A DNA stretch of 64,000 nt from Nautiliaceae bacterium (GCA_039831155.1 JBDONT010000026.1:35892-99891); one strand, 5' to 3'. Positions 11,590-50,418 are shown, counted from the first letter of the stretch. Translations and numbers: made by a program. The notes: generated by a model from the sequence alone, not told the origin.

Positions 11590-12564
11590 ATGGACCATCT
11601 AATTCCGGAATGGGAAATACAAGAATTTATCCAACTTGTATTTCCCCATAAAAATACGGATTGGAATTGTTGCTTAGAAGAAGCTATAAACACTTTTAGC
11701 GAAATTGCATATGCAATTGCTCAATATCAAAAAGTACTTATCTGTTATGAAGATGAAAATACAATCTCTCACCTAAAACACAAAAACTTTATCTTTCGTA
11801 AAGTAAAAAACAACGATACCTGGGCAAGGGATTTTGGAGCAATAAGCATAAAAATAGACAATGAAGTCAAACTTCTTGATTTTAAATTCAACGGCTGGGG
11901 ACTTAAATTCCCAAGTAATTATGATAATCTAATCTCAAGAGAGATTTTTAATATCCATAAAAGCTACAATTTCGTACTTGAAGGTGGGAGTATCGATACA
12001 AATGGAGAAACACTCTTAACTACTACAAAGTGCCTGTTAGAACCAAACAGAAACTATCCAATGAGTAAAGAAGAGATTGAAAAGTTTTTAAAAAAAGAAC
12101 TGTTTGTAAAAGATATTATTTGGCTTGAGAATGGATTTTTAGAAGGAGACGATACAGACTCTCACATAGATACCCTTGCAAGATTTGTAAATAAAGATAC
12201 AATAGTTTACTGCACCTGTGAAGATAAAAACGATATTCACTACAATGAGCTAAAAAAAATGGAAAAAGAGCTTAAAAAAACATCTTTTAATCTAATTCCA
12301 CTGCCTTTGCCAAGCCCAAAAATATGGGACAATCATCGCCTGCCTGCAACATATGCAAACTTTTTAATTACAAACCACGCAATACTTCTTCCGATTTATG
12401 AAGATAAAAAAGACAAATACGTATATGACCTATTCAAAGAGATATTCAAAGAAAAAGATATAATCCCAATCAATGCAAACACCTTAATTAAGCAACACGG
12501 TTCCATTCATTGCATCACAAAAGAGTACTTCTTAAAACCACTATCTCAAACTCTAAAAAATTAA
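11590..12564 (+). CDS. Agmatine deiminase family protein
   Basis: PEWE, DTWARD, LEGGSI, DTDSHID, GSIHCIT; ATG at 11590. Confidence 0.9.
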   Translation: MDHLIPEWEIQEFIQLVFPHKNTDWNCCLEEAINTFSEIAYAIAQYQKVLICYEDENTISHLKHKNFIFRKVKNNDTWARDFGAISIKIDNEVKLLDFKFNGWGLKFPSNYDNLISREIFNIHKSYNFVLEGGSIDTNGETLLTTTKCLLEPNRNYPMSKEEIEKFLKKELFVKDIIWLENGFLEGDDTDSHIDTLARFVNKDTIVYCTCEDKNDIHYNELKKMEKELKKTSFNLIPLPLPSPKIWDNHRLPATYANFLITNHAILLPIYEDKKDKYVYDLFKEIFKEKDIIPINANTLIKQHGSIHCITKEYFLKPLSQTLKN

Positions 12565-13165
12565 AAGGAAATTCCTTTAAAAATTTTCTCACTTTTCCCA
12601 CTTTCGCCCTCACATTTCCACTTACCCCCGAATACTTTATATATTCAAGCAGTTTTTTAGGAGAATCAAACTCCAACCTATAATGCAACACTTCCACTTC
12701 AGCCGATAAAATTTCAGCCGAAGTCAAAATCTCTTCTTTTGAAAAAATGGGTGATTTGATTTCCAAATAGTTATGAAGAGTCTTAAAAGTATTTGAAGTA
12801 AAAAGAGTCAGTAAAAAACTCCTCTCCAACCCCTTAATCTCCCTAAATACAAAATCCAAATCCAAAGCCCACTGCAAAGCGGAAAAAGAGACAATCTGTT
12901 CAAAATCATATCTTCTTATCTTCTCAAAACACTCTTTTTTATTAAAATCGGCAAGTAAAACAGTGCAAAGATTTCTCTTTAGCATCTCTTTAGAAGCATC
13001 CATGCCTAAATAAAATTCAAACTTCTTATATTTGCAAAGCCCTTCACTCCCACACCCCAAATCCACTACCCTATTTTTTACAAACGGAAGATATCTTTTG
13101 ATTATCTCTTTTTGAATTACGTTATACTTTCCGTAAGTGTTGGCGAACTTCTCAAAACTTTCCAT
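12515..13165 (-). CDS. bioC: SAM-dependent methyltransferase, BioC-like
   Basis: 'F..Y..YNVIQ', VDLGCGS, SALQW. Confidence 0.7.
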   Translation of the reverse strand: MESFEKFANTYGKYNVIQKEIIKRYLPFVKNRVVDLGCGSEGLCKYKKFEFYLGMDASKEMLKRNLCTVLLADFNKKECFEKIRRYDFEQIVSFSALQWALDLDFVFREIKGLERSFLLTLFTSNTFKTLHNYLEIKSPIFSKEEILTSAEILSAEVEVLHYRLEFDSPKKLLEYIKYSGVSGNVRAKVGKVRKFLKEFPFNFLEFEIVVLRSTLL

Positions 13166-13235
13166 ATTTTCTCTTTTTTTGATTTTATAATATCAAAAAT
13201 TTTTACTATAATTAAAAAAAAATTAAAGGCTCATT

Positions 13236-14504
13236 ATGTTTAAGATTATATCGGCTCTTTTTATAAGCGTACTTCTTTTTGCAGACTACTACACTGCCAC
13301 AAACAGTTCTTTAAATTCAAATAAAACTTTAATCTTTACCCATAATTTCAAAATAGAAATAAACAACTCCAAAATTACCACAAACTCTAAAAAACTAAAC
13401 GCCCTAATGCTAGGAAAGACCCCTAAAACATTCGAACAAACAGACATAACAAACGAAGACGATATGCTAGAGAGTTTTGAAACTTATAACCTGGCATACG
13501 TTTTAAAAAACCGTCCTCAAGAAGAGTTTGTTTTAAAAACCCCAAAATATCTGCTTTTAATAACTCCTTCATACTCTACCGATTATATAGATGTATTCAA
13601 TACCAAAAAAGAAGCGAACGTCTATACGTACGAAGTAAAAAAGGCTCTTCTTAAAGACCACTCTTTAGCAAAAAAACAGAATTTTTCCTTAACTCTATAT
13701 ACGGACGAAAACGACAATCTTTTAGCCGTTAAATTTTCAAGAGACCTAAAAATCCTAAAACAAGTAATAACCCCGAATCTTGAAAAATTCTTAGAAGAAA
13801 AATCCAAATTAAAAACGGAAGTTGATAAATTTACCTTAGATGAAGGAAACTTATACCTCTCTTACGTATCAAAAACAAAAAACGGAGCGAAAAGATTAAA
13901 ACTCACTTATCAAAAATTTAAAAAACACTACATTAAAACTATGCTAAAAGCACCTATTTCACTATTTGACCCGGAAAACAAATCCCCTAGCATAGAAGAG
14001 GATATAGGATTTTTAAGAGAGTATAAAAACGACTTATATGAAATTAAAAAAGTTCAAATAATCGATTCCCAGATCGATACGATGTGGATAAACAAACCTT
14101 CAAGCAGCGTAGTGGTGGTAGAATATAACGGACTAAACGACAAAACAATCCTCTCAAAAGATAAAAACCAACAGTTCTACGGAATTGAGGGAGTTTTATA
14201 TCTTGTAACGTGGATGAGATTAAACAACATCCATTCAAAAATCTTTACTTTTATAAACGGATATTTGCCGTTTGACTCCACAATGAAAGAGATATCAAAA
14301 AACAGCTACGATATGGAAAAAAGCCACCATATAATCTATAAATTCACAACAGACGACAAAGGATTTATCACAAAAATTTTCTATCCTTCTTACAATATTT
14401 CCATACACTTAGAAAGCATAGATACGGATTTAACGCTTAAAAACAAAAAATACCTAAAAAAACTTATGCAGCAATTCGATATTAAATTAATTAAGGAGCA
14501 GTAG
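13236..14504 (+). CDS. Hypothetical secreted protein (envelope operon gene 1)
   Basis: Sec signal peptide (LLFA|D); no recognised family; TATAAT at 13207-13212 upstream. Confidence 0.75.
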   Translation: MFKIISALFISVLLFADYYTATNSSLNSNKTLIFTHNFKIEINNSKITTNSKKLNALMLGKTPKTFEQTDITNEDDMLESFETYNLAYVLKNRPQEEFVLKTPKYLLLITPSYSTDYIDVFNTKKEANVYTYEVKKALLKDHSLAKKQNFSLTLYTDENDNLLAVKFSRDLKILKQVITPNLEKFLEEKSKLKTEVDKFTLDEGNLYLSYVSKTKNGAKRLKLTYQKFKKHYIKTMLKAPISLFDPENKSPSIEEDIGFLREYKNDLYEIKKVQIIDSQIDTMWINKPSSSVVVVEYNGLNDKTILSKDKNQQFYGIEGVLYLVTWMRLNNIHSKIFTFINGYLPFDSTMKEISKNSYDMEKSHHIIYKFTTDDKGFITKIFYPSYNISIHLESIDTDLTLKNKKYLKKLMQQFDIKLIKEQ

Positions 14505-15535
14505 TGAAAAAATTTTTACCTCTAATAGCTTTTATGGTACTGGGATGTTCTACCGGAAATAACGCCGTAGTCTCTTCTAAAACCATACAGGCAAAACAAG
14601 AAGAAATGTTATTAGACGAAGACCAGGAAGAAGACAACCAAGAACTCTATTTTCTAGCTACCAAAAATAAAATTCTCTACTCAAAAACAAGCTACACTAC
14701 AAAAGACCAAATAGACTATTTTATAAACAATACGTTAGAAAACCTTTTTCGCCAAGCAAGACCGAGACTCCCTAAAAGACATCATCACAAACTAAATATA
14801 GCTATCTACGTAGACGCTTCTTCTTACAAAAACGAAATAACAGACGCCGTGCAAGCTTTTATCTTAAAACACAAAAGATTTAATCTAGTCTCAATAGATT
14901 CTCAAAGTCTAAAAGCCTTAAGAAAAATCATAAACAAAGAAAAAGACTCCACCTATACGGGAGGATTTTATATAAACCCAAAACATCGTTCAGACATAGT
15001 AATTTTCATAAAAGCCTCAAAAGATAAAAACAACCTTTATATAAAAGCAAAACTCATCTCAAAAAACGCTTCTATACTAGGGAGTATAAAAGAGAAAATA
15101 AACCTCAATAAATCCCTAAAATGGGCTCAAGTAAAAGTACCTAGAAACACGGGAGGGTTTGAGAATTTTGAAATTATGATAAAACCGGTTTCAAAAAAAG
15201 AGTTTTACGGATTTGGAGACGACACGCCCGTTACAAACGTAACGTTCCAAAAAGCAAGTGCTTACTGTATGAAAATAAATGCCCAACTTTCACAACCTTA
15301 TGTATTCGAATATGCCAGAAGATCCCACGTAATACAAAAACCTCTAAACGTTTCTCAAGAAATGATAGCTCCTTACGATGATGAAGACCAGGATATTTAT
15401 TATCAAGAGGGGGATAAATTAGAAAGCGAGGACGGAACTATTATCGTATTTGACTGGAATAAAGAAAAATACTATTCGGTATCAAACCTATACACCTCTT
15501 CTAATACCACATTCAGATGTATAAAGGTTAAATAA
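14504..15535 (+). CDS. Lipoprotein: LpoB/CsgG-like alpha/beta domain plus degenerate FGE-sulfatase-like domain
   Basis: Lipobox VLGC; C-terminal 'FEIMIKPVS..EF...PVTNVTF..AS.YC...TFRC'. Confidence 0.6.
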   Translation: MKKFLPLIAFMVLGCSTGNNAVVSSKTIQAKQEEMLLDEDQEEDNQELYFLATKNKILYSKTSYTTKDQIDYFINNTLENLFRQARPRLPKRHHHKLNIAIYVDASSYKNEITDAVQAFILKHKRFNLVSIDSQSLKALRKIINKEKDSTYTGGFYINPKHRSDIVIFIKASKDKNNLYIKAKLISKNASILGSIKEKINLNKSLKWAQVKVPRNTGGFENFEIMIKPVSKKEFYGFGDDTPVTNVTFQKASAYCMKINAQLSQPYVFEYARRSHVIQKPLNVSQEMIAPYDDEDQDIYYQEGDKLESEDGTIIVFDWNKEKYYSVSNLYTSSNTTFRCIKVK

Positions 15536-16365
15536 TGAAAAAACTATTATTTATGCTTCTTGCCACGTTTTTAACGGCAAAAACAAACATCTCCCTGGCA
15601 AAAACCCTACTTCAGTTCCAAGGGGATGAATATAATATGTTATTGGCACCAAAAGAAATAGTAGTAGTAGGAAGAAAAAGAAAAACAAAAAAAGCAATCA
15701 ACAAAGGCTATAAAAGAGCTATCAGCGAACTTAAACGACAGATAAGGCTAAGGGATATAGACTTTCATCTTAAAGTCTTTACGCCAAAAGGCTCCGACTT
15801 ACCTCAATACAGAACCCAAGATATTCAGGCTTACAAAATTTTAAAAGAGATGTTAAAACAGCAAATAGCCATAAGACAACAACTCTTTCAAGATACTGAA
15901 ATTAAAAAACCCAAAAAAGTATCTGCAAAAGATATAGGACTTGACGATATAGGGGATGACGCTTTTGATATAAGCGACGATAAAGTAAAAATCAAAAAAC
16001 AAATCCTAAGCCCGGCAGAAGCTTTTATAGGAGCCTATACCGAACTTAGCGAACTTTATAATCAAGAAGTTACCAAATTAAGCGATGTTTTACACCCTTT
16101 TAACATAAACGGAAAACCGGTATTCAAACACGTTCATTCGGTTTTCGGTATGGCGTTTTTCCCGACAAAAGTCGCCGGAAGCATACATATGATAAAAATC
16201 TATATCGTATTATGCAATATAAACACCGAATCGGATAAAAGCGTCCAAATTATCGCTAAAGAGATTCCTCCTTTTGAGTGGGACAGAAACTATCTATACA
16301 TCAATGCGGCAACCGGAAAAGTTTTAAGACAGATTATTTCCGGAGTGCTTGGAGAAAATTTTTAA
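15535..16365 (+). CDS. Hypothetical secreted protein (envelope operon gene 3)
   Basis: Signal peptide; TAATG coupling to the previous gene; no recognised family. Confidence 0.7.
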   Translation: MKKLLFMLLATFLTAKTNISLAKTLLQFQGDEYNMLLAPKEIVVVGRKRKTKKAINKGYKRAISELKRQIRLRDIDFHLKVFTPKGSDLPQYRTQDIQAYKILKEMLKQQIAIRQQLFQDTEIKKPKKVSAKDIGLDDIGDDAFDISDDKVKIKKQILSPAEAFIGAYTELSELYNQEVTKLSDVLHPFNINGKPVFKHVHSVFGMAFFPTKVAGSIHMIKIYIVLCNINTESDKSVQIIAKEIPPFEWDRNYLYINAATGKVLRQIISGVLGENF

Positions 16366-16374
16366 AGGAAAAGT

Positions 16375-17937
16375 ATGAAAAAGCTTATTTTACTGTTTAG
16401 TGCCATATTTTTTATAGGATGCGGAAGTAATCAGTTAAGCCCTCACAGCCTAAAAAAAGAGTTAAAAAAAGAACATAAAGAGTATTCCCACTGGTTTTTG
16501 GACCAAAGTGAAAGAGTGCCTTTAAAAATAATTGTTTTAGGATACGTAGACCCGGAAGTTAAACACACAAAAGAGTATACAAGATATATCAATCTCTTTA
16601 AACAAATCAAAAAAAAACCGACTATTTTAAACAAAATCACAAACAGCAATTTTACCGATAAATTCTGGCCTATAAAAGTCGTAAATTTCGACTCAAAAGA
16701 AATTTATCTTCAAAAATTCGTAGCGGTTTATAAAAACAGATTCAAAGATAAAGAAGTTTTAAACGACATTTTAAGACCGGATGTGGAAAAACCTTCTGCA
16801 GAAATTTTGATAAGACTTAATTATCAAGACTTAAAAAAAGGCAAATTAACGCTTGAAGGATACAAAACAATAAAAACCCCCAATTACGCAAGAAACTCCT
16901 TTTACTATTACCTTATAAAACCAAACTACTCTTTGCTGACACCTCTTAAACAAAAAGAGGCTATTATAAATTCCGTTTCGGCAGTACTTAAACTCTCTAT
17001 CCCTCAATATGTCTCACTGGACCTAAAAAACCTTATAAAAACCCACCCCGTTATGAAAATATTTACGAAAAAAAACGAAAATTTCGTTTTTAAAGGCTAC
17101 ATCAAAAAACACATCATCTGGAACGAAATCACCCCAAAACAGCTTTTATACACAAAGCCTCTTCCTTATGAGGATTTAAAAACCCTTTATGAGACTAAAT
17201 ATATACCTTTTGAAAAAGAGAGTGATTTAAGCTTAAAAGAAATAAACGAACTGACAAAAGTTTTAAACACCTCTTTAATAGACCCTCTTATTCTATACGG
17301 ATACAACGACACCGACACCCTAAACCTTCCTAGCAAAAAATACAACGACTTTTTAATAATCTATCCTAAAAAAACATACGATTTAGACGAAATTTACTTT
17401 ACTTCAAACAACCAGCTGCAACAAAACGGATATAAACTAATCTACAAAAACAGCAAATTCATTCAACAAGACTTGGATACTAAATTCGGATTTAAAGTAG
17501 TTAATTATATTTTATCCTTTAAAGACCCTTCAAAAGCCAAACTAAATAACGTTTACGTGCAAATAAAAGATTCCAAAGTTACAAGATTGAGTGCTACAAA
17601 AATACCTTACATTGCAATAAAATTCGACCTAACACACTATCAAAAAGATACGTTTTTATACAGTTACCATAACTATCACTATTTATACAAAGAAAAATTC
17701 GGTGGGTGTACCAGAATACTATTTTTATTCAAAGCATCATACGACCCTATATGTTACTCTCAATTCTCAACGGGAGTGGGTATAGGACTTGGATTTATGG
17801 ATTTACTGTTTTGGACTATTACGTACGGAATAGGAGCAGGGACGTATTTTGTAAGCTATGATAAAGACACGATGATAAAAGCCATCAAAAACAGTGGCTT
17901 TAGAGATTTGGAAATATTTAAAACGGAGTTAAAATGA
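16375..17937 (+). CDS. Hypothetical lipoprotein, paralogue of 22282..25110
   Basis: Lipobox FIGC; shared motifs with 22282 ORF; C-terminal Gly-rich hydrophobic segment. Confidence 0.75.
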   Translation: MKKLILLFSAIFFIGCGSNQLSPHSLKKELKKEHKEYSHWFLDQSERVPLKIIVLGYVDPEVKHTKEYTRYINLFKQIKKKPTILNKITNSNFTDKFWPIKVVNFDSKEIYLQKFVAVYKNRFKDKEVLNDILRPDVEKPSAEILIRLNYQDLKKGKLTLEGYKTIKTPNYARNSFYYYLIKPNYSLLTPLKQKEAIINSVSAVLKLSIPQYVSLDLKNLIKTHPVMKIFTKKNENFVFKGYIKKHIIWNEITPKQLLYTKPLPYEDLKTLYETKYIPFEKESDLSLKEINELTKVLNTSLIDPLILYGYNDTDTLNLPSKKYNDFLIIYPKKTYDLDEIYFTSNNQLQQNGYKLIYKNSKFIQQDLDTKFGFKVVNYILSFKDPSKAKLNNVYVQIKDSKVTRLSATKIPYIAIKFDLTHYQKDTFLYSYHNYHYLYKEKFGGCTRILFLFKASYDPICYSQFSTGVGIGLGFMDLLFWTITYGIGAGTYFVSYDKDTMIKAIKNSGFRDLEIFKTELK

Positions 17938-18533
17938 AAAGATTTTTAATATTTCTAGGAGCTGTTTTTATTATAGGATGTTCTAAATCCCCTCAACAAA
18001 CAAAAATAAACCTACTTAACGTCCTGGATGAAAATACATCCGTAAAAGATTCAAGCGAACTCTATTTTCACGACACAAAAGGCAAAAAATTCTACTCTCA
18101 TACAAAACCATCCTTAAAACAAGGGTGGGTAAGTATCACTCTCTATACAAAAAAAGGAAAAAAAAGATTTGAAATTATGAAATCTCCCGTAAGCTTAAAA
18201 GACTTTAAAATATCAAATTCAAGCTCCCCCGTAACAAACATATCTTTTAAAACAATGGCTAAATACTGTATGAATAAAAACGCAACTTTGGCTACTATTT
18301 TCGTGTTCGAAAAAGCCAGAAAAAAACACCTCCTCTCAAAACCTCCCGTAAAATACGAAATTTTAGCCCCGGTGGATGAAGAAGATGACGATATTTACAT
18401 AAACCAAAAAGACAAAGTAATAAACAAAGACAACACCGTTATAAGGTTTGATTGGCAAAAAGAGATATATGAAGAGGTACCGATTATTTTTAAATCTAAA
18501 AACACAACTTTTAGATGTATGAGGGAAAAATGA
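17934..18533 (+). CDS. Lipoprotein with degenerate FGE-sulfatase-like domain
   Basis: Lipobox IIGC; 'FEIMKSPVS...PVTNISF...YC...NTTFRC', paralogous to the C-terminus of 14504 ORF. Confidence 0.65.
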   Translation: MKRFLIFLGAVFIIGCSKSPQQTKINLLNVLDENTSVKDSSELYFHDTKGKKFYSHTKPSLKQGWVSITLYTKKGKKRFEIMKSPVSLKDFKISNSSSPVTNISFKTMAKYCMNKNATLATIFVFEKARKKHLLSKPPVKYEILAPVDEEDDDIYINQKDKVINKDNTVIRFDWQKEIYEEVPIIFKSKNTTFRCMREK

Positions 18534-19798
18534 GAAAAATTATTTTAATTTTTCTGTTTTCAAGCCTTTTTGCACTACCTCCCTGGACACAAGGAGTGGA
18601 TAAAAAAGACGGAGTTTATTTTGTAGGAGTTTCCAAGTGGTACCCTCTAAACGACACTTTTACCAAAAAAACAGCCCTAAAAGACGCCCTAAGCGATGCT
18701 TACTCCCAAATAGCCGGTTATTTCGGAATTAAAGTCACATCCTCAACCGATATTCAAAAATACCTAACAAATAAAGGAATTTCAAGAAATATCAAAAAAG
18801 AAGTAAAAACAAAAACATCCCTTTTTATTTTTAACATAAAACCCATAAAAAGATATACCGAAGAAAAAGAGGATTATTACAGAATCTGGGTGCTGGTAAA
18901 ACTTGATAAAAATACCGAACGTCAGATAAAAGAAAATCTAAAAAAAGACAAACAAAAACTAAACCTCTTAAAAACACAAATAAACAAAGCCATAAACAAC
19001 CAAAACTTATTTCTAGCCCAAAATCTCCTAATAAAAGCAAAAAGCCTTCAAAGTGCCGTGTTTGACGATGAACTGCCTCTTTTGGAAAAAAGAATCAAAA
19101 CACTAAAAGAAAACCTAATAATCCCTACTATCTCTTTAGATAAAACTCTTTATAAACCGAACGAAGAGATAAAAATAAAAGCCTCCCTAAACCGTCCAGG
19201 GTATTTATATCTTTTTTACGACAACAAAGACTCGATTGAAATGTTCTTACCGAACGAATTTCAAAACAACTACATTCAAAACAGACTCATAACCTTCCCA
19301 AACGACGACATTTCCATAATCGCTTATAAAAACTCTATAAACTACCCGAATAAAATCATAGCCTTAGGTTCTAAACACTACATAGATTTTAGCTTCTTAA
19401 GTGACGACAAAGACGGGGTTTATATCTTCTATAACAAACAAAAAGTAAAACAAAAAATAAAAGAGTGCTTAAAAAAAGGCGAATGTTTCGTAGTGGTTAA
19501 AAGGTTTAAAATAAAAAATAAAAACACAAAAATAAATATCTCAATTCAAGGACCTTTTAAAAAAGAGATTTTAGCGTTTTTAAGAAAATTTAAGATAACA
19601 TCAACCCCTAACGGCAAAAAAATAGTTATTAAAATATTCCCTAAAACCTCCTATTCAAACGAACTTCAAACATACATAAAAACCTACAAAATAGTAGCAC
19701 TTTACAACCACCGAAAAGATATAGAATTTGTAGCCGACAAAGAGGATTTGCTTTATAAAATCAAAGAGATAATTCAATGTTTCATATCCCAAAATTAA
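18530..19798 (+). CDS. Secreted LPP20-like + DUF4384-like protein
   Basis: Signal peptide; 'PPW...YFVGVS...A..DA..QIA'; 'YKPNEEIKIKAS.NRPGYLYLF...LPN'; start moved to ATG 18530. Confidence 0.6.
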   Translation: MRKIILIFLFSSLFALPPWTQGVDKKDGVYFVGVSKWYPLNDTFTKKTALKDALSDAYSQIAGYFGIKVTSSTDIQKYLTNKGISRNIKKEVKTKTSLFIFNIKPIKRYTEEKEDYYRIWVLVKLDKNTERQIKENLKKDKQKLNLLKTQINKAINNQNLFLAQNLLIKAKSLQSAVFDDELPLLEKRIKTLKENLIIPTISLDKTLYKPNEEIKIKASLNRPGYLYLFYDNKDSIEMFLPNEFQNNYIQNRLITFPNDDISIIAYKNSINYPNKIIALGSKHYIDFSFLSDDKDGVYIFYNKQKVKQKIKECLKKGECFVVVKRFKIKNKNTKINISIQGPFKKEILAFLRKFKITSTPNGKKIVIKIFPKTSYSNELQTYIKTYKIVALYNHRKDIEFVADKEDLLYKIKEIIQCFISQN

Positions 19799-20859
19799 TT
19801 CTTAGCCTCTTTTTGGACTCTCAAAGCAGACTTTTAAAATTTGCCTTTTATACACTCCCTATAGCTCTTTTTTTTTCAATCACCTCTTTTTTGTTTGTAA
19901 ATAATATCTTAAAAAGTTACAAAAATTACCTAATCAATTCTTACATAGGCTCCCAAGGAAGAGTTACGATAATCTCAACCCCACCATTTATAAAAAAACT
20001 TCAAGAAGTCTCAAAAAAACACCACCTAATCTTCTCTCCCAAAGTAACTTTCAAAAGTTTTATTGTTTTTAAAAACAAAACTCCCATTATAAAATCAGCC
20101 CAAATAGTAATCTTAAATCAATCCTACCTCCAAAAAAAATTCCACTCAAACGACATATTTATAAACAAAGCCCTAAAAAACGGTTTTGGGGATATGAATA
20201 TAAGCTCTTTTAAAAAGTTACAATACGACAAAAAAAGTATCCCGATAAAAAAGATAAAAATAATAGACACTGGGTTTTTAGGAAACTATCCTACTATATT
20301 TTTATCTTTTAAAAACGCTAAAAAACTCTTTCCCTCTTTAAAAACGAACCAAATAGAATATCTAAACAAAAACACTAAATTCATAAAAACACTAGTGGAA
20401 AAAACGGCAAAACAATACGGGGTTTTAGAGTATAAAATAAAAGATTTAATTGAAGACACCAAAGAGACAAAAGAGTTTTTTCAAAAAATCTCCGTCATTC
20501 AAAAGTTTATTATGGGATTTATTTTCATACTTGCCTTAGGAATAGTTATTTTAAGCGTAGCTATAATGATAGAATTTAAAAAATCCTCCCTTAAAACCCT
20601 ACATCTAATAGGTATGAGCAAAAAAGAGTTAAACCTTACTATCTCCTTAATAGTATTAAGCACAATTAGTATTATTTTAACCTTATCCGTGATAAGCACC
20701 AAAGCCTTAGAGAGTCTGTTTTTAAAAATTACCGGATTTGGAAGTGACTTTTTTGTGCCTGTCGGTTTTAAAGAGATAGGATTTGTTTTTGTTTTAGGAG
20801 TAATTTTAAGTATGATAACTTATATTTCATCCTCACTTGCTTTTAAAGGAAAAGAATGA
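19777..20859 (+). CDS. FtsX/LolC-E-like ABC permease
   Basis: 1+3 TM topology around a large periplasmic domain; 'LHLIGMSKKEL' motif. Confidence 0.7.
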   Translation: MFHIPKLILSLFLDSQSRLLKFAFYTLPIALFFSITSFLFVNNILKSYKNYLINSYIGSQGRVTIISTPPFIKKLQEVSKKHHLIFSPKVTFKSFIVFKNKTPIIKSAQIVILNQSYLQKKFHSNDIFINKALKNGFGDMNISSFKKLQYDKKSIPIKKIKIIDTGFLGNYPTIFLSFKNAKKLFPSLKTNQIEYLNKNTKFIKTLVEKTAKQYGVLEYKIKDLIEDTKETKEFFQKISVIQKFIMGFIFILALGIVILSVAIMIEFKKSSLKTLHLIGMSKKELNLTISLIVLSTISIILTLSVISTKALESLFLKITGFGSDFFVPVGFKEIGFVFVLGVILSMITYISSSLAFKGKE

Positions 20860-21590
20860 TTTTTTTACTTTTTTTTATTCCTCTTTTCGCTTTTGAAAAA
20901 GTGTTTATAAATCTTGATAAAAACATATCCATACCTAAACTTAACGACAAAAACATAAAAGATTTCAGCGTCTCTTATACTCTAACTCCTACTAAATTTT
21001 ATATTTCAAAATATGAAATTACCAAAAAAGAGTATAACGAATACCTAAAAGCCATTCACAAAAAACCGATAAAAATAGACGAAGACGAAGAAAACGAACC
21101 TATAACAAACGTATCGTTTTTTGAAGCTCAAGAGTTTTGCAGATTCTACAAAGGAAGAGTTCCAACGGAAAAAGAGTGGACAATAGCAGCAAGCGTAAAA
21201 CTTGCGAAATCAAAATGTTTTGAGTTTATAAAAAAATACATCTTCACACCATTTCCCACTCAAAAATACCCCTTAGCCCCAAACGACCCTCAAATTAAAT
21301 GTATGCTAAAAGAAGACGACGAAATAGAACCCTCTCTTATAGGAAGCGAATTTTTGGAAGTTCAATACTCTTACGAAAACATAAACGGCATATACGGAAT
21401 GCTTGGAAACGCTTTTGAATGGGTGGACGATAAGGTTAATTATTTCAATCACACCTTCTACAAAATAAAAGGAGGCAGCTATAACGATAAAAATATGCCG
21501 GTATTTTTCGATAGCAGAGTTTACAGCCTGCTAAAACCGAATACCAAAAGAGTAAACGTAGGATTTCGATGCGTATGGGAGACAAAATGA
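20856..21590 (+). CDS. FGE-sulfatase (SUMF1/EgtB/PvdO) domain protein
   Basis: 'KYEIT..EY', 'PITNVSF.EA..FC', 'RVPTEKEW', 'GIYGMLGNAFEW', 'KGGSY', 'GFRC'. Confidence 0.88.
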   Translation: MIFLLFFIPLFAFEKVFINLDKNISIPKLNDKNIKDFSVSYTLTPTKFYISKYEITKKEYNEYLKAIHKKPIKIDEDEENEPITNVSFFEAQEFCRFYKGRVPTEKEWTIAASVKLAKSKCFEFIKKYIFTPFPTQKYPLAPNDPQIKCMLKEDDEIEPSLIGSEFLEVQYSYENINGIYGMLGNAFEWVDDKVNYFNHTFYKIKGGSYNDKNMPVFFDSRVYSLLKPNTKRVNVGFRCVWETK

Positions 21591-22279
21591 TAAAAGCGAT
21601 AAATTTAAAAAAAAGTTTCAATAAAGAAGTTATTTTTCAAAACGTAAATTTCGAAGCCAAAAAAGGAGACTTTTGCGTAATTACCGGAAAAAGTGGTAGT
21701 GGAAAAACGACTCTTTTAAACCTCATCTCCACAATAGACGAAATAAAAGAGGGAAAACTTATAATAAACAACACCGACATAACAAACCTAAACGAATACG
21801 AAAGGGCAAAATTCAGAGCCAAAAATATAGGTTTTATTTTCCAATCATACGCTCTTATTCCGGAGTTTGACATTATAAAAAACTGCACTATTCCACTTAT
21901 TATGTCAAATGTACCTAAACGCAAAGCCGAACAAAAAGCAAAAGAGATAATTTTAAAATTCATCCCCGAAGCCGATGAAAAGTTTTTAAAAAAAAGACCT
22001 CCTCAACTAAGTGGAGGACAACAACAAAGAGTGGCTATTGCAAGGGCGTTAATTCACAACCCTCCTATCATAATAGCCGACGAACCTACGGCAAACCTAG
22101 ACAAAGAATCTGCAAAAGAAGTAAAAGAGCACTTAAAAAAATTATCCCTAAATTCAAAATGCGTAATCGTAGTAACGCACGAAGAGGAGTATTTGGAAAA
22201 ATACGCAAACGTAGCTTATCAATTCGTAAAAGACCCGTCAAACAAAGCAAAATCAATTCTTAAAAAAATAAAAGGCTAA
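21587..22279 (+). CDS. ABC ATPase, LolD/MacB-like
   Basis: GKSGSGKTT, 'FR..NIGFIFQSY', LSGGQQQRVAIARAL, ADEPTANLD; start moved to ATG 21587. Confidence 0.9.
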   Translation: MIKAINLKKSFNKEVIFQNVNFEAKKGDFCVITGKSGSGKTTLLNLISTIDEIKEGKLIINNTDITNLNEYERAKFRAKNIGFIFQSYALIPEFDIIKNCTIPLIMSNVPKRKAEQKAKEIILKFIPEADEKFLKKRPPQLSGGQQQRVAIARALIHNPPIIIADEPTANLDKESAKEVKEHLKKLSLNSKCVIVVTHEEEYLEKYANVAYQFVKDPSNKAKSILKKIKG

Positions 22280-22281
22280 AA

Positions 22282-25110
22282 ATGAGATATCTATTTATTA
22301 TCGTTTTGATATTCTTAGGATGTCAAAACCCCTCACCTTCAAAATACAAAACCCTCTATGAAAAAACAAAAGCCAAGAACTCATCCTACTCCCAATGGCA
22401 GGAGAAAAAAACACCTCTAAAAATTATAGGAATAATCTACATAAACCCTCTAACCACTCAAACAAAAGAGTTCAAAAACTACACAAAACTTCTCTCTTAC
22501 ATTGCAAAACACCCTAATTACCTAAACTTAAACCAAAAATTCACTTCCGTTCAATTTATAAAAAAATCTTCCGACCAAAAATTTAATGCCGTTTACAAAA
22601 ACAGATTCGAAGACAAAGAGATATTAAACGACATCTTAAGAAATTACCCGGACACCCCCTCATCCGAAATAGCTATTATGCTTGATTATGAAGAGCTTCA
22701 AAAAGGAAACCTGGTAATTAAAGGCTACAAAAGCGTAAAAATAAAAGGGAAAAAAAGAAACTCTTACTTTTTTACCCTAAAAAAACCGGAATACTCCAAA
22801 CTTAACAAAAAACAAAAACAACAAGCACTAATAAACTCAATAAAAGCCGTTTTAAACCTATCAATTCCTAATTACATCTCAATAAACACCCAAAACTTTA
22901 TACAAAAAGAGAAATTTAAAAAAATCTACTCTACCAAAAACGGCGTTATAAAAAAAGAGACCTTTTTTAACCCTATAAAAAACGCCCTTAACAAACTTAA
23001 ATTTAAAAAAAGAATGATTTTATCAAACAACGAATCGGTATATCTTTTACACAACTTTTTTCCTCAGAGATTCAGTATTTATAAGAATTTCGCAGCTATC
23101 CAAAATAGAAAACAAATTGTAATAATAAATCTGTTAACCGGAAAAATCATAAAAAAAATTCCAACCGACATTTCAATACATCAAATAAAATTAAACGAAA
23201 ATCTAATAATCGTAGGCTATAAAAGCTCCCTAATATCAAGCAAAAACTTCTTAGAAGTAATAAACCCTAAAACAAAAGAGACCGTTTTAAAAAAAGAAAT
23301 CCCCTCTTTAACGACAGCCCTTACCGACAAAGCCGTTTACTATTTAGACAAAAACAAAAAAGAACTTAACATTTTATTCCTAAAAGACTTTACAACAAAA
23401 ACAATTAAACTTCCTCAATCGTCTTATAAAATTTTTACAAACGACAAAACGATTATCCTAAAAGGATACAACCAAATATTAACCCTAAATGCCAATACTT
23501 TAAGAGTTATAAAATCAACCTATATTCGACCGACTTACCACTTTACGTCTTTAAAATACTCCCCTAACCTTCAAACAAAAATAAAAATAACCTATCCTAA
23601 CCGTTTAACTAATATACAAATCTCAACCCCTACTAAAAAAACGACAATTTCCACAAACAACAGACTTTTGACATTGGCTTTTTCCAAAGACTCAAAATAT
23701 GTGGCTTTGGCGTTTAACGTAATAAAAAATAAAATCTTCTTTTCAAACAATTTCAAAATAGATATTTACGATTTACAATCTCTAAAAAAAATAAACACCC
23801 TTTATTTTGAAGCGTTTAAAATGGCATTTTACAATCACAACCTCGTAATTTTTTCAAAAGACACCATAAGAATCTTAGATATACGTAAAAAACCGAATAA
23901 AACCCTCGTTTCCTCAAAAGATAAAATAACCTTCTCTCCAAATAAAAACTACTTTTTATTAAAAAACACCTATAAAAAAATCCAATTTGAAGTATATGAC
24001 CTAAACTTTAAAAAACTTCTCTCAAAAAAACTATATAAAAAAGACGGCTACTCGGAACTGCTCATAACAAACAAATACGCCGTTTATTTCTACTCCCCTT
24101 GGGGATATTCACCAAATAAAAAATCGCTAATTCACTTTTACAACCTAAAAACAAAAAAAGAAAAAGAGATTTGGGCTAATGTAGCCTCTTTTAAAGTTTC
24201 TCCCTGTGGGGATGATGTTTGTCTTATAAACACCAAAGATTATCAACTCTATAAAATCTCCCCAAACGGCGTAAAAAAACTCTCAAACTCTTTACCGAAA
24301 AAATTTATCGTCTCTTTAAAAGTAAGCCCGGATTCTCAAAAAGCCGTAATAAACTACTTCAAAAAAACATTAATCTACGACCTTAAAACCTCCAAACAAA
24401 CGCTAATAAACACAAAAATAAACAAATCGTTTGCTATAACGGATAAATTTCTTTTTTATATCCAAAAAAATACTCTAAACAAACTATCCCTAACCACCCT
24501 AAAAACCGTAAAAAAAGAAATAAATACTCCAGTATCCCCTAAACTGCTAGCAGATAATAAACACATTTACATAACTTCATCGATTTATAATAAAAACTTT
24601 ACGCAAGTATTCGATTATAACCTAAACCTAATCACAATACTGCCTTATAAAATAGTAAATTCCACCAAAAACTACCTAATAAGCAAAACCGGAAGTACCC
24701 TTACATTAATAAACAAAAGTTTTTTAAACGTAAACTTAAAACCTATAGACGAAAAAATAGCTAACATAAAAAACAGCTTTTTTAATAAAAGCAAAAAAGA
24801 GATAAAACAACTAATCTTCACAACTCCCCTAAACCCAAAAGATTTACTTGTTTTAAAAACTACTAATTACATAACTTCGTTTAAAACAACGCTTCGTGCA
24901 AAGGAAGTGGAAAAAATAGCAGATATTTTAGGAGTCGACTTTTTAGACCCTCTTTTGGCTTATAATGTAAGCTTTTTAAAAAAATACGCACTTAAAGTCG
25001 TAAAATACTCAAACACCTACGAAACAATCTTAAAACCCTTTTACGATATAAACGAAATATTTTTCAATTCGCCTTTTGATTACAAAAAAGCCGGATTTCA
25101 AAGGAGATAG
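22282..25110 (+). CDS. Large lipoprotein with probable beta-propeller insertion
   Basis: Lipobox FLGC; repeated 'FS.D.KY', 'IYDL', 'SPD' blade-like motifs; termini paralogous to 16375 ORF. Confidence 0.7.
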   Translation: MRYLFIIVLIFLGCQNPSPSKYKTLYEKTKAKNSSYSQWQEKKTPLKIIGIIYINPLTTQTKEFKNYTKLLSYIAKHPNYLNLNQKFTSVQFIKKSSDQKFNAVYKNRFEDKEILNDILRNYPDTPSSEIAIMLDYEELQKGNLVIKGYKSVKIKGKKRNSYFFTLKKPEYSKLNKKQKQQALINSIKAVLNLSIPNYISINTQNFIQKEKFKKIYSTKNGVIKKETFFNPIKNALNKLKFKKRMILSNNESVYLLHNFFPQRFSIYKNFAAIQNRKQIVIINLLTGKIIKKIPTDISIHQIKLNENLIIVGYKSSLISSKNFLEVINPKTKETVLKKEIPSLTTALTDKAVYYLDKNKKELNILFLKDFTTKTIKLPQSSYKIFTNDKTIILKGYNQILTLNANTLRVIKSTYIRPTYHFTSLKYSPNLQTKIKITYPNRLTNIQISTPTKKTTISTNNRLLTLAFSKDSKYVALAFNVIKNKIFFSNNFKIDIYDLQSLKKINTLYFEAFKMAFYNHNLVIFSKDTIRILDIRKKPNKTLVSSKDKITFSPNKNYFLLKNTYKKIQFEVYDLNFKKLLSKKLYKKDGYSELLITNKYAVYFYSPWGYSPNKKSLIHFYNLKTKKEKEIWANVASFKVSPCGDDVCLINTKDYQLYKISPNGVKKLSNSLPKKFIVSLKVSPDSQKAVINYFKKTLIYDLKTSKQTLINTKINKSFAITDKFLFYIQKNTLNKLSLTTLKTVKKEINTPVSPKLLADNKHIYITSSIYNKNFTQVFDYNLNLITILPYKIVNSTKNYLISKTGSTLTLINKSFLNVNLKPIDEKIANIKNSFFNKSKKEIKQLIFTTPLNPKDLLVLKTTNYITSFKTTLRAKEVEKIADILGVDFLDPLLAYNVSFLKKYALKVVKYSNTYETILKPFYDINEIFFNSPFDYKKAGFQRR

Positions 25111-26271
25111 ATGAAAAAACCAAGCTTAACCTTTTCTCTTTTTAAAAGCTCCTTTTTTCTTGTTTTTATTTTATATCTTTTGACGCTGATAATTTTAAAC
25201 ACCATTTTAATATTAAAAGAGTCTTACAAAACATCCCTTGAAAACGAATTTGCAACCAAACAGCCCCATATAAAAATAACCTATATAAACTCAAACTTAA
25301 AAGACATCTCAAAAGATTTGAAATTGATAAAAAAAATCCCCCTTGTAAAGGCTATAACCCCTTTTAGCGAAGGGGAAGAGTTTTTCGAATCCATAGGCTA
25401 CAAAAAAACAGGAGCCAACTCTTTATATAACGGCAATATTAAAATAATAGGAATTTTAACAGACAGTTTCGTATACGATTTTTTCGATATGAAGTTTTTG
25501 CCTTTTGGGGATTTTCAAGTTCCTTTGACTGTAGTTGAATTTATATATAAATTCAGAACAACCCCCAATCTCATAATTTTTAATCAAACGCTATTTAAAT
25601 CATATTTTCCGGTAATAGAATCAACAGAAGATTTTAGCTTTAAAAACAAACATTCTCTTAATGGCAAACTATGCGGAGTGTTTAACGACTTTAGTAACTC
25701 CCCTACAATCTATACCAACTTATACTTTGCAAACAGACTATTAAACAAACCTTTAAATCACGCAGACGGATTTTTCGTAAATGCAACTTCCATAAAAAAA
25801 ATAGACGCACTTTTAGAAAACCTAAAAAAAATCCTCCCCAAAAACAGATTTATAATCCACTCGTGGCTTGAGCTTAGAAAAAAGCAGTTTGATATGTTTT
25901 ATCTTTTTTCTATGCTCTCTTTAATCATCATTACAGCCATTTTTCTTTTGTCTTTGCTTTTTGCGGTTTTAATAATTTATCATTCAATAGTAAAAAAAAG
26001 CTATCAATTATCGGTTCTTTTTACACTGGGTTACAACCTTAAAAAAGAGATTATGTGTATCATTTCGGTTATTATCTCCATAGCGACGATTATTAATTTT
26101 TACACCGTTTCAAACCTAACCCCAAAAATCCTAAAAACCCTAAACCTCCCAACCTCCAACACCCTAAAGACGGCTTTTTACGCAACTTGTTTTTTAGATT
26201 TGTTTTTTATTACGGTAAGTTTTTTTATTATAAAAACCACTTATGAATTAAAAGCAAAAAGCGTCTTTTGA
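25111..26271 (+). CDS. Second FtsX/LolC-E-like ABC permease
   Basis: 1+3 TM topology; 'PHIKI', 'SWLE.....F', 'LFTLGY....I'. Confidence 0.7.
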   Translation: MKKPSLTFSLFKSSFFLVFILYLLTLIILNTILILKESYKTSLENEFATKQPHIKITYINSNLKDISKDLKLIKKIPLVKAITPFSEGEEFFESIGYKKTGANSLYNGNIKIIGILTDSFVYDFFDMKFLPFGDFQVPLTVVEFIYKFRTTPNLIIFNQTLFKSYFPVIESTEDFSFKNKHSLNGKLCGVFNDFSNSPTIYTNLYFANRLLNKPLNHADGFFVNATSIKKIDALLENLKKILPKNRFIIHSWLELRKKQFDMFYLFSMLSLIIITAIFLLSLLFAVLIIYHSIVKKSYQLSVLFTLGYNLKKEIMCIISVIISIATIINFYTVSNLTPKILKTLNLPTSNTLKTAFYATCFLDLFFITVSFFIIKTTYELKAKSVF

Positions 26272-26276
26272 TTTTA

Positions 26277-26285
26277 TGATATAAT
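26277..26285 (+). promoter_or_regulatory. Extended -10 promoter (TGATATAAT) for the secG operon
   Basis: Exact motif 21 nt upstream of the secG ATG. Confidence 0.65.
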
Positions 26286-50342: not shown

Positions 50343-50418
50343 TGGTGGAGACAACGGGACTCGAACCCGTGACCCCGACGCTGCCAGCGTCGTGCTCTAC
50401 CAACTGAGCTATGTCCCC
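50343..50418 (-). tRNA. tRNA-Ala(GGC)
   Basis: GGGGACATAGCTCAGTTGGTAGAGCACGACGCTGGCAGCGTCGGGGTCACGGGTTCGAGTCCCGTTGTCTCCACCA: cloverleaf, GGC anticodon, G3:U70, encoded CCA. Confidence 0.97.

Follow-up and report, generated by a model that had tools for sequence, protein, structure and literature searches.

The DNA analysed here, called the window, is a 64,000-nt stretch of a Nautiliaceae bacterium genome (GCA_039831155.1, JBDONT010000026.1:35892-99891), and positions are counted from its first letter. Between 13236 and 26271 its plus strand carries 11 open reading frames (ORFs), named g1 to g11, packed as one compact unit in which most junctions overlap, by 1-22 nt, and three are gapped, by 9, 2 and 0 nt. 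The products comprise four lipoproteins, four other exported proteins, two FtsX-type permeases and one ATP-binding cassette (ABC) ATPase. An earlier note on this DNA had described a compact unit of 11 co-directional, near-abutting genes with the same 4+4+2+1 product classes, and the counts were identical on re-reading. The block is an accessory island of rare envelope genes arranged around a putative, very divergent ABC transporter, for which a role in the delivery of lipid-anchored cargo is tentatively proposed.

The first three genes encode an exported protein of 422 aa with two beta-rich domains (g1, 13236..14504), a lipoprotein of 343 aa whose C-terminal ~140 aa are a g5 paralog and weakly FGE-like (g2, 14504..15535), and an exported protein of 276 aa belonging to an unnamed family (g3, 15535..16365). 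They are followed by the lipoproteins g4 (16375..17937, 520 aa), with a conserved N-terminal domain at residues ~35-215 in common with g10, and g5 (17934..18533, 199 aa), and by g6 (18515..19798), an exported protein with a DUF4384 domain. The FtsX/MacB-type permease g7 (19777..20859) precedes g8 (20856..21590), an exported FGE-sulfatase-fold protein of 244 aa, and g9 (21569..22279), an ABC ATPase of the MacB/LolD/FtsE class. At the 3′ end lie g10 (22282..25110), a lipoprotein of 942 aa in which a ~600-aa insert separates a g4-like N-terminal domain from a g4-like C-terminal module, and g11 (25111..26271), a second and very divergent FtsX-type permease. Judged by relatives, g6 and g9 probably start later, at 18530 (the second Met) and 21587, respectively, and with the revised starts each would overlap the preceding gene by 4 nt.

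As read from the N-termini of the translations, the leaders of g2, g4, g5 and g10 are basic and hydrophobic and end in x-[I/L]-G-C, and the four products are therefore classed as lipoproteins, whereas g1, g3, g6 and g8 carry cleavable-type signal peptides without the cysteine. Upstream of g1, a promoter-like site on the plus strand (TTTATA, 17-nt spacer, TATAAT; 13184..13212) matches by consensus only. The TATAAT that had been pointed out earlier at 13207 is indeed present (13207-13212), but the region holds 42 promoter-like sites where shuffled sequence leads one to expect 44.6, and so shows no excess of them.

The ATPase g9 matched PF00005 with 114.6 bits, and its best NCBIfam models were those of the MacB/Lol/FtsE group (176-196 bits, every one under its cut-off), bacteriocin and darobactin exporter ATPases included. 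The match of g7 to PF02687 (E 2e-5, 25.1 bits) was just under the cut-off of 25.5 and rose above it, to 28.9 bits, in the genome-wide search. No Pfam family matched g11, and hhalign joined it to the g7 family with a probability of 84.8% (E 6.6e-6, 303 columns) from shallow alignments of three sequences each. Both permeases have four hydrophobic segments in their hydropathy profiles, with a loop of ~190-220 aa between the first and the second. This is the MacB/LolC topology, and by it and the hhalign alignment the two are paralogs. On the basis of PF02687 in g7, the g7-g11 alignment and the model class of g9, the three proteins are assigned to the type VII (MacB/LolCDE) class of ABC transporters, as a very divergent member whose two permeases differ from each other. 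The type VII features present are the FtsX C-terminal domain (g7) and the topology of four transmembrane segments with a large loop after the first (g7 and g11). A complex prediction for the periplasmic loops of g7 and g11 with g1 scored 0.28 against a mark of 0.32, which is evidence neither way.

For g1, 13 relatives were found at E≤0.01, and the AlphaFold2 (AF2) model built from a 14-sequence alignment (pLDDT 89.8, pTM 0.78) consists of two beta-rich domains. The best Foldseek match was a DUF1849 structure (6ntr, E 1e-4), followed by lipoprotein-sorting, LolA and RseB chains (E to 7e-3; probability 0.9-1.0). In the VIA structural comparison, residues 198-402 aligned with Brucella EipB/DUF1849 (6ntr) at Z 11.7 (root-mean-square deviation, rmsd, 3.7; 181 residues aligned; 9% identity), and the same C-terminal domain aligned with PA1994 (2h1t) at Z 9.8 (rmsd 3.9, 158 aligned, 8% identity), with the best LolA chain (8t5j) at Z 8.6 (rmsd 4.4, 133 aligned), and with LolA, LolB, RseB and other chains at Z 6.0-7.6. 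An axonemal protein (9fqr) aligned with the C-terminal domain at Z 13.2 (rmsd 4.1, 186 aligned). The N-terminal domain returned a single weak match, YmcC at Z 6.0, and the Protein Atlas gave weak feature leads to DUF620 and DUF1571/MucB_RseB (0.81-0.85). The model thus shows the C-terminal domain (~198-402) as an EipB/LolA-like beta-spiral, i.e. a curved antiparallel sheet around a helical plug. In the available part of the EipB report, the EipB fold is a beta-spiral resembling LolA and LolB, PA1994 likewise; EipB resides in the periplasm and is required for an intact envelope, and barrels of the LolA/EipB kind generally bind hydrophobic ligands (10.1101/551135). From LolA, g1 differs in its length of 422 aa, its two domains and its greater closeness to EipB (DUF1849); from EipB and PA1994 (DUF1089), it differs in the absence of sequence similarity, in its extra N-terminal beta domain and in its place within an ABC operon.

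Of the three FGE-fold proteins claimed in the earlier note, g8 proved firm, with a PF03781 match at E 9e-22, whereas g2 and g5 are weak candidates. The best match of g8 by sequence in the PDB was the non-catalytic SUMF2 (1y4j, E 3.3e-6), and no chain named TagR was returned at E≤0.01. Its translation has no cysteine between the GGS and GFRC motifs, a stretch which we take to hold the catalytic cysteine pair of FGE, and g8 therefore appears non-catalytic. Among NCBIfam models, TIGR02171 was the best (E 6.9e-11, profile positions 57-280 of 912, 40.9 bits against a cut-off of 544), and GldK also matched (E 1.2e-8, 34.6 bits against 350). Envelope proteins built on non-catalytic FGE folds are likewise found in the Fibrobacter TIGR02171 lipoproteins and in GldJ, GldK and PorK of Bacteroidota, but g8 is not a lipoprotein, scores far below these cut-offs and has no gliding or type IX secretion genes beside it in the block. 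The C-terminal ~140 aa of g2 and g5 are 45% identical and include two FGE-like motifs; g2 matched PF03781 at E 0.0032, under the cut-off, and g5 had no Pfam match of its own. Within this family, 3 of 7 members matched PF03781 (best E 2.3e-4), its hhalign alignment with the g8 family was weak (probability 20% over 43 columns), and its profile gave chance-level rows or none against the PDB.

The remaining exported proteins have few relatives. In g3 the N-terminal part is basic and the middle acidic, and the C-terminal part, of ~90 aa, is highly conserved. A search of 1.84 billion proteins with the g3 profile gave 19 representatives at E≤1e-3 (14 at 1e-10, 7 at 1e-30). The Sulfurimonas relatives of g3 are 56-73% identical to it, and one relative comes from a Gammaproteobacteria metagenome-assembled genome (MAG); Pfam and NCBIfam gave no match for g3, the PDB no lead and the Protein Atlas nothing usable. 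The DUF4384 domain of g6 (PF14326) scored 32 bits, over the cut-off of 27, and was matched by all seven family members. Five relatives of g6 were found, its N-terminus gave faint hints of FlgT_N or LPP20 (one of seven members each), and its family profile returned chance-level rows or none from the PDB.

The lipoproteins g4 and g10 share the N-terminal domain (40% identity over ~230 aa) and a module of ~100 aa, and seven relatives of g4 were found at E≤1e-3 in a collection of 5.8 billion proteins. In 8 of 16 members of the g4/g10 family a WD40/beta-propeller domain follows the N-terminal domain; the insert of g10 stands at the propeller position without a Pfam match, and its being a propeller is unproven. 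The AF2 model of g4 was confident for the N-terminal domain alone, and Foldseek found no match for the model at E≤1e-3. VIA aligned the domain with CT253, TraT, PqiC, LptE, TolB-N and PelC (best Z 6.6, TraT Z 5.8), and an LptE/PelC/TolB-N/TraT-type identity was put aside as a lead only, with Z at most 6.6 and so below the meaningful level. The sequences point to g10 as a variable accessory gene: in the sister genome (G005; locus L008, C3 13599-13823) it is an in-frame remnant of 74 aa holding the first ~32 and the last ~42 residues, either a real deletion or a collapse of the MAG assembly, and it is of full length, with frame-keeping indels, in the DNA run of a ~96% identical relative that holds the whole block. 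In Sulfurimonas sp. AH-709-D16 (L017, L018, L020, L021) at least eight g4/g10 paralogs of 437-1037 aa were seen, most of them outside the block and several with canonical WD40 propellers.

Three complete relatives were compared, two from the same genus and one from the wider family, and in each of them the methyltransferase gene that flanks the block on the left directly adjoins secG, the block's neighbour on the right. Since the flanks adjoin in these relatives, the 13 kb were either gained by, or survive only in, the lineage of the own genome (G000) and the same-genus genome G005, the two in which a g10 query found a match among 41 related genomes. G005 holds the block at the same place with 94-98% protein identity. 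Between the two genomes, the block genes have a synonymous divergence (dS) of 0.09-0.38 and the flanking genes one of 0.06-0.27, and this similarity points to the presence of the block in their common ancestor. With dN/dS values of 0.04-0.28 against the G005 orthologs (10 comparable genes), the block genes are real and under purifying selection. The GC content is 0.28-0.34 inside the block and 0.35-0.38 at 10-12 kb and 28-29 kb. Across 13000-26000, as counted on the coding strand of the island, the GC skew is strongly negative (to -0.42 at 23-24 kb) and the AT skew is positive. The island borders showed no gene for an integrase, a transposase or a tRNA, the sole tRNA gene of the window being at 50343, and an Rfam scan of 9000-30000 gave no match.

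The families are very rare, with 5-19 relatives each in billions of proteins; in 401 good-quality genomes of the phylum g11 was found in the own genome only (E≤1e-5). A scan with one genome per species confirmed 7 loci of 29 pattern matches: one in the Nautiliales MAG G005, four in Sulfurimonas sp. AH-709-D16 and two in a Sulfurimonas MAG. Genomic contexts cover four lineages. One Sulfurimonas contig (L020) has a relative, 27-61% identical, for each of the eleven genes, in the order g4-like (opposite strand), g7-g8-g9-g11, g10-like, g6 (opposite strand), g1-g2-g3, g4-like and g5, between moxR with a Sel1-repeat gene on one side and DUF58-batA-batB on the other. The island there splits an apparent moxR-DUF58-batA-batB operon, and the g2 relative of this single-cell genome is divided into two frames (L020 9964-10470 and 10508-10936), by a frameshift or a sequencing error. 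In a second Sulfurimonas genome (G425) the order is g6-g7-g8-g9-g11-g1-g2-g3, with a contig break inside g3, and the block lies between ftsK (with a 131-aa ORF) on one side and, across the contig break, acnB on the other. On a metagenome contig of 2.6 kb the C-terminus of g2 is followed by g3 and then by a g4-like gene.

The block thus occupies three different chromosomal sites, its own and two in Sulfurimonas. The sub-blocks g7-g8-g9-g11 and g1-g2-g3 are invariant and g6 is always present, whereas g5 and the g4/g10-type genes vary, and g8 is encoded between g7 and g9 in all three lineages. The co-conservation in other genomes that the earlier note had proposed to look for was therefore found, as an eight-gene core recurring in two Sulfurimonas genomes. 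Thirteen public runs hold part of the window; those with a label are hydrothermal-vent or epibiont metagenomes, and four of the 13 were compared in detail.

The own genome is 96.7% complete. Outside the block, its contig C20 encodes LolA (147.6 bits to NF000663) and a LolCE-like permease (261 bits to TIGR02212, cut-off 362.45), and contig C32 (327-2990) a further pair made up of a LolD-like ATPase and another LolCE-like permease. The block is therefore not the genome's only housekeeping Lol transporter, as had been conceivable at the outset. The C20 LolA gene is divergent from secA and has the LolCE-like permease downstream (C20:153507-158668; L025 2507-7668), and the C32 pair is followed by a 232-aa ORF without an NCBIfam match. 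A short FtsX-like gene lies on contig C2. TssC (PF05943) was not found in the genome and Pkinase (PF00069) matched one ORF of 185 aa on another contig, in agreement with the earlier statement that no partner of a type VI secretion system (T6SS) is present. At E≤1e-4 no block product other than g9 has a paralog in the rest of the genome, so that the g8 query disclosed no other FGE-like gene. PADLOC 2.0 matched none of its families to 10 of the 11 proteins (g9 left out) at E≤0.01.

Our leading, still tentative reading is that the block encodes a self-contained accessory type VII ABC machine that extracts its own lipoproteins or other lipid-anchored cargo and ferries them to an outer-membrane complex. 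The available part of a review describes type VII systems as each working through a periplasmic partner: LolA, EnvC, MacA-TolC or TesA (PMC12646458). On the model of LolCDE-LolA, FtsEX-EnvC and YbbAP-TesA, the transporter formed by g7, g11 and g9 would convert ATP hydrolysis in the cytoplasm into mechanical work in the periplasm, acting together with g8 and g1. Lipid-anchored cargo would be pulled from the inner membrane and handed via g1 to the outer membrane; the likeliest cargo would be the lipoproteins g2, g5 and the g4/g10 family, with its conserved domain after the lipid anchor, and once delivered it would join g3 and g6 in a complex anchored in the outer membrane. The conserved core joins a type VII ABC engine to periplasmic proteins and lipoproteins and has no signalling output, enzyme domain or outer-membrane duct. 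Extraction and delivery are favoured because the ABC operon includes g8 and because g1 belongs to the fold class of lipoprotein carriers. That 4 of the 11 products are lipoproteins, and that carrier genomes hold extra stand-alone g4-family lipoproteins, fits a family of clients. The tight packing, the island status, the recurrence of both sub-blocks in Sulfurimonas, the topology and paralogy of the permeases, the model class of g9, the dN/dS values, the RNA-library contigs and a comparable Borrelia cluster also count in its favour. The data establish the gene content, the island, its co-conservation, the purifying selection and the fold of g1, from which the mechanism at every step, the cargo and its destination are inferred. 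Lipoprotein delivery or assembly had been among the options named before, and it gains support from the EipB/LolA-like fold of g1.

The likeness to LolCDE-LolA would lie in the heterodimer-style FtsX-type permeases with four transmembrane segments and a large periplasmic loop, in the LolD-class ATPase, in the periplasmic LolA-like beta-barrel protein and in lipoproteins as probable cargo. The block departs from Lol in being an accessory island, in the FGE-fold protein inside the ABC block and in the scores of all parts, far below the Lol equivalog cut-offs. A number of results weigh against delivery of lipid-anchored cargo. At 189.4 bits g9 falls short of the LolD model TIGR02211 (cut-off 307.75), the lolCE model TIGR02212 was matched by g11 with 29 bits (E 5e-7, cut-off 362.45) and not at all by g7, and the hhalign probability between g11 and the genome's own LolCE-like permease was 3.6%. 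No Pfam or NCBIfam model matched g1 at E≤0.1, the LolA families PF03548, NF000663 and TIGR00547 included; its C-terminal domain aligned with 12-stranded outer-membrane barrels at a similar Z of 8-9. The block encodes no outer-membrane receptor or barrel, and the cargo and the protein contacts are proposed by analogy. A private pathway is not required, since housekeeping Lol could serve the block lipoproteins. At least some of the supposed clients are dispensable, as G425 has, as far as its contigs show, a block without g4, g5 and g10, and g10 is nearly deleted in G005. Two RNA libraries made from a single sample contain contigs that match the window exactly and span the g2/g3 and g3/g4 junctions, and some stretches of the block have no cover; because DNA may be present in the libraries and the contigs carry neither strand nor transcript ends, they are compatible with transcription but no proof of it.

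A stricter version of the same idea, which we regard as doubtful, is a mobile 'private Lol' of Campylobacterota, in which the ABC transporter with an obligatory FGE-fold subunit hands lipoproteins to a g1-type carrier for transfer to the outer membrane or the surface. Its lipoproteins would be a dedicated family, some with beta-propellers, and it would be a second route moving between genomes together with its clients. Campylobacterota are not known to have LolB.

Next after the leading reading, though unlikely, is export or detoxification of a non-protein hydrophobic substrate (lipid, glycolipid or membrane-active peptide) in the manner of MacAB, YbbAP-TesA or Bce systems, with g1 as a periplasmic lipid carrier and the lipoproteins as accessory or structural parts. 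Extractors of hydrophobic compounds are among the type VII systems in the available part of the review (PMC12646458), LolA/EipB-like barrels bind hydrophobic ligands in general according to the EipB report as far as available (10.1101/551135), the best models of g9 include exporter ATPases, and the proposed clients are partly dispensable. The block nevertheless contains no biosynthetic gene, MacA-type adaptor or TolC-type duct, and its core also holds three exported proteins and a lipoprotein (g3, g6, g8 and g2). Bce-type modules usually include a two-component system, and none is present. A sensor resembling TagQRST of the Pseudomonas aeruginosa H1-T6SS is a reading that we hold to be improbable. 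Here the FGE protein, the lipoproteins and the ABC transporter would sense outer-membrane perturbation, without a T6SS, and relay it to some output. The available text on TagQRST describes an outer-membrane lipoprotein, the periplasmic FGE-domain protein TagR (62 kDa) and an ABC complex with ATPase activity (PMC13713981), and the same kinds of parts occur in the block: lipoproteins, g8 as a PF03781 protein (E 9e-22) with a signal peptide, and g7, g9 and g11 of the Lol/MacB class. PpkA, PppA, Fha and T6SS genes were not found, and across three lineages the block encodes no kinase, phosphatase, FHA protein, sigma/anti-sigma pair or DNA-binding protein. With TssC missing from the genome and an ORF of 185 aa as its sole Pkinase match, the likeness is therefore one of parts only; the block has two permease genes, a g8 of 244 aa against 62 kDa for TagR, and seven further conserved proteins without a Tag counterpart. 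Of the TagQRST-like parts proposed earlier, the kinds of parts stood, but the defining PpkA/T6SS link is absent and no signalling output is encoded.

Slightly more improbable still is a surface-variation or conflict module, in which variable propeller lipoproteins would exclude phages or competitors and the ABC transporter would merely assemble them. The island at three different chromosomal sites, the expanded and variable g4/g10 family with propellers in half of its 16 members, the presence or absence of g10 between close relatives and the weak likeness of the g4 N-terminal domain to the surface-exclusion lipoprotein TraT (Z 5.8) would suit it. The TraT match is below the meaningful level, PADLOC found nothing in the ten proteins searched, no mobility, nuclease or toxin gene is present, and the core genes are under ordinary purifying selection. 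Very improbable, and last in our ranking, is an FtsEX-like regulator, in which mechanical action of the ABC transporter would switch on g8 or g6 as a periplasmic enzyme or binding protein for the remodelling of wall or envelope. FtsEX-EnvC is a type VII precedent in the available review text (PMC12646458), and in all three lineages g8 is encoded among the ABC genes. The family searches showed neither a hydrolase nor another catalytic domain in the products, and a separate FtsX-like gene lies on C2. The lack of cysteine in g8 at the presumed catalytic stretch speaks against this reading as well. In order of decreasing likelihood, delivery of lipid-anchored cargo is thus followed by hydrophobic export, the Tag-like sensor, the conflict module and the FtsEX-like regulator.

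The nearest published analogue in concept, compared by description and itself a prediction only, is the accessory plasmid cluster BBJ23-29 of Borrelia, a predicted MacB-like ABC transporter with a LolA-like protein (PMC13078400). As far as the available text describes it, that cluster differs in having an Omp85 barrel, two chaperones and a permease that is a homodimer, and in lacking FGE-fold, DUF4384 and propeller lipoproteins. No description of an operon like the present one was found in the literature searched, with partial journal coverage and supplementary files outside the search, which is in line with the earlier impression that the system had not been described. The type VII ABC systems (Lol, FtsEX, MacAB, YbbAP) are few, and what defines each of these mechanotransmission machines is the partner it has in the periplasm. 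The engine of the block is of a known class and its partner set is new: an FGE-fold protein in the ABC operon, a two-domain EipB/LolA-like protein and four families almost without relatives, which move as a unit between Nautiliales and Sulfurimonas of hydrothermal vents. Should the block carry its own lipoproteins, lipoprotein sorting could be modular and mobile, and the EipB/DUF1849-type fold would gain a function, as would non-catalytic FGE domains beside Lol-like transporters, TagR included. Should it not, the block would still be a defined, testable envelope system of an undescribed kind.

Downstream of the block lie secG (PF03840, from 26307), a polysaccharide deacetylase gene and frr, and upstream an aconitase-family gene, an agmatine-deiminase-type gene and the divergent methyltransferase gene. 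The latter (12515-13165, minus strand) is methyltransferase-like by a sub-threshold Pfam match (Methyltransf_11, E 9e-4); in relatives it adjoins secG at 64-69% identity, and in two of them the tblastn alignment crosses one TAA. An imperfect direct repeat of ~17 nt was seen by eye at both island junctions (~13176-13192 and 26267-26283), its right copy overlapping the stop codon of g11 and the conserved -10 region of secG. As an insertion trace it was rejected: at least 60 repeat families of such size occur in the AT-rich window, it was not among the 20 largest listed, and repeats so common are no evidence of mechanism. Upstream of moxR in the Sulfurimonas genome (L023 1092-5010, G041:C2), a separate envelope lipoprotein cluster encodes CsgG/LpoB-like, TPR and LPP20-like proteins.

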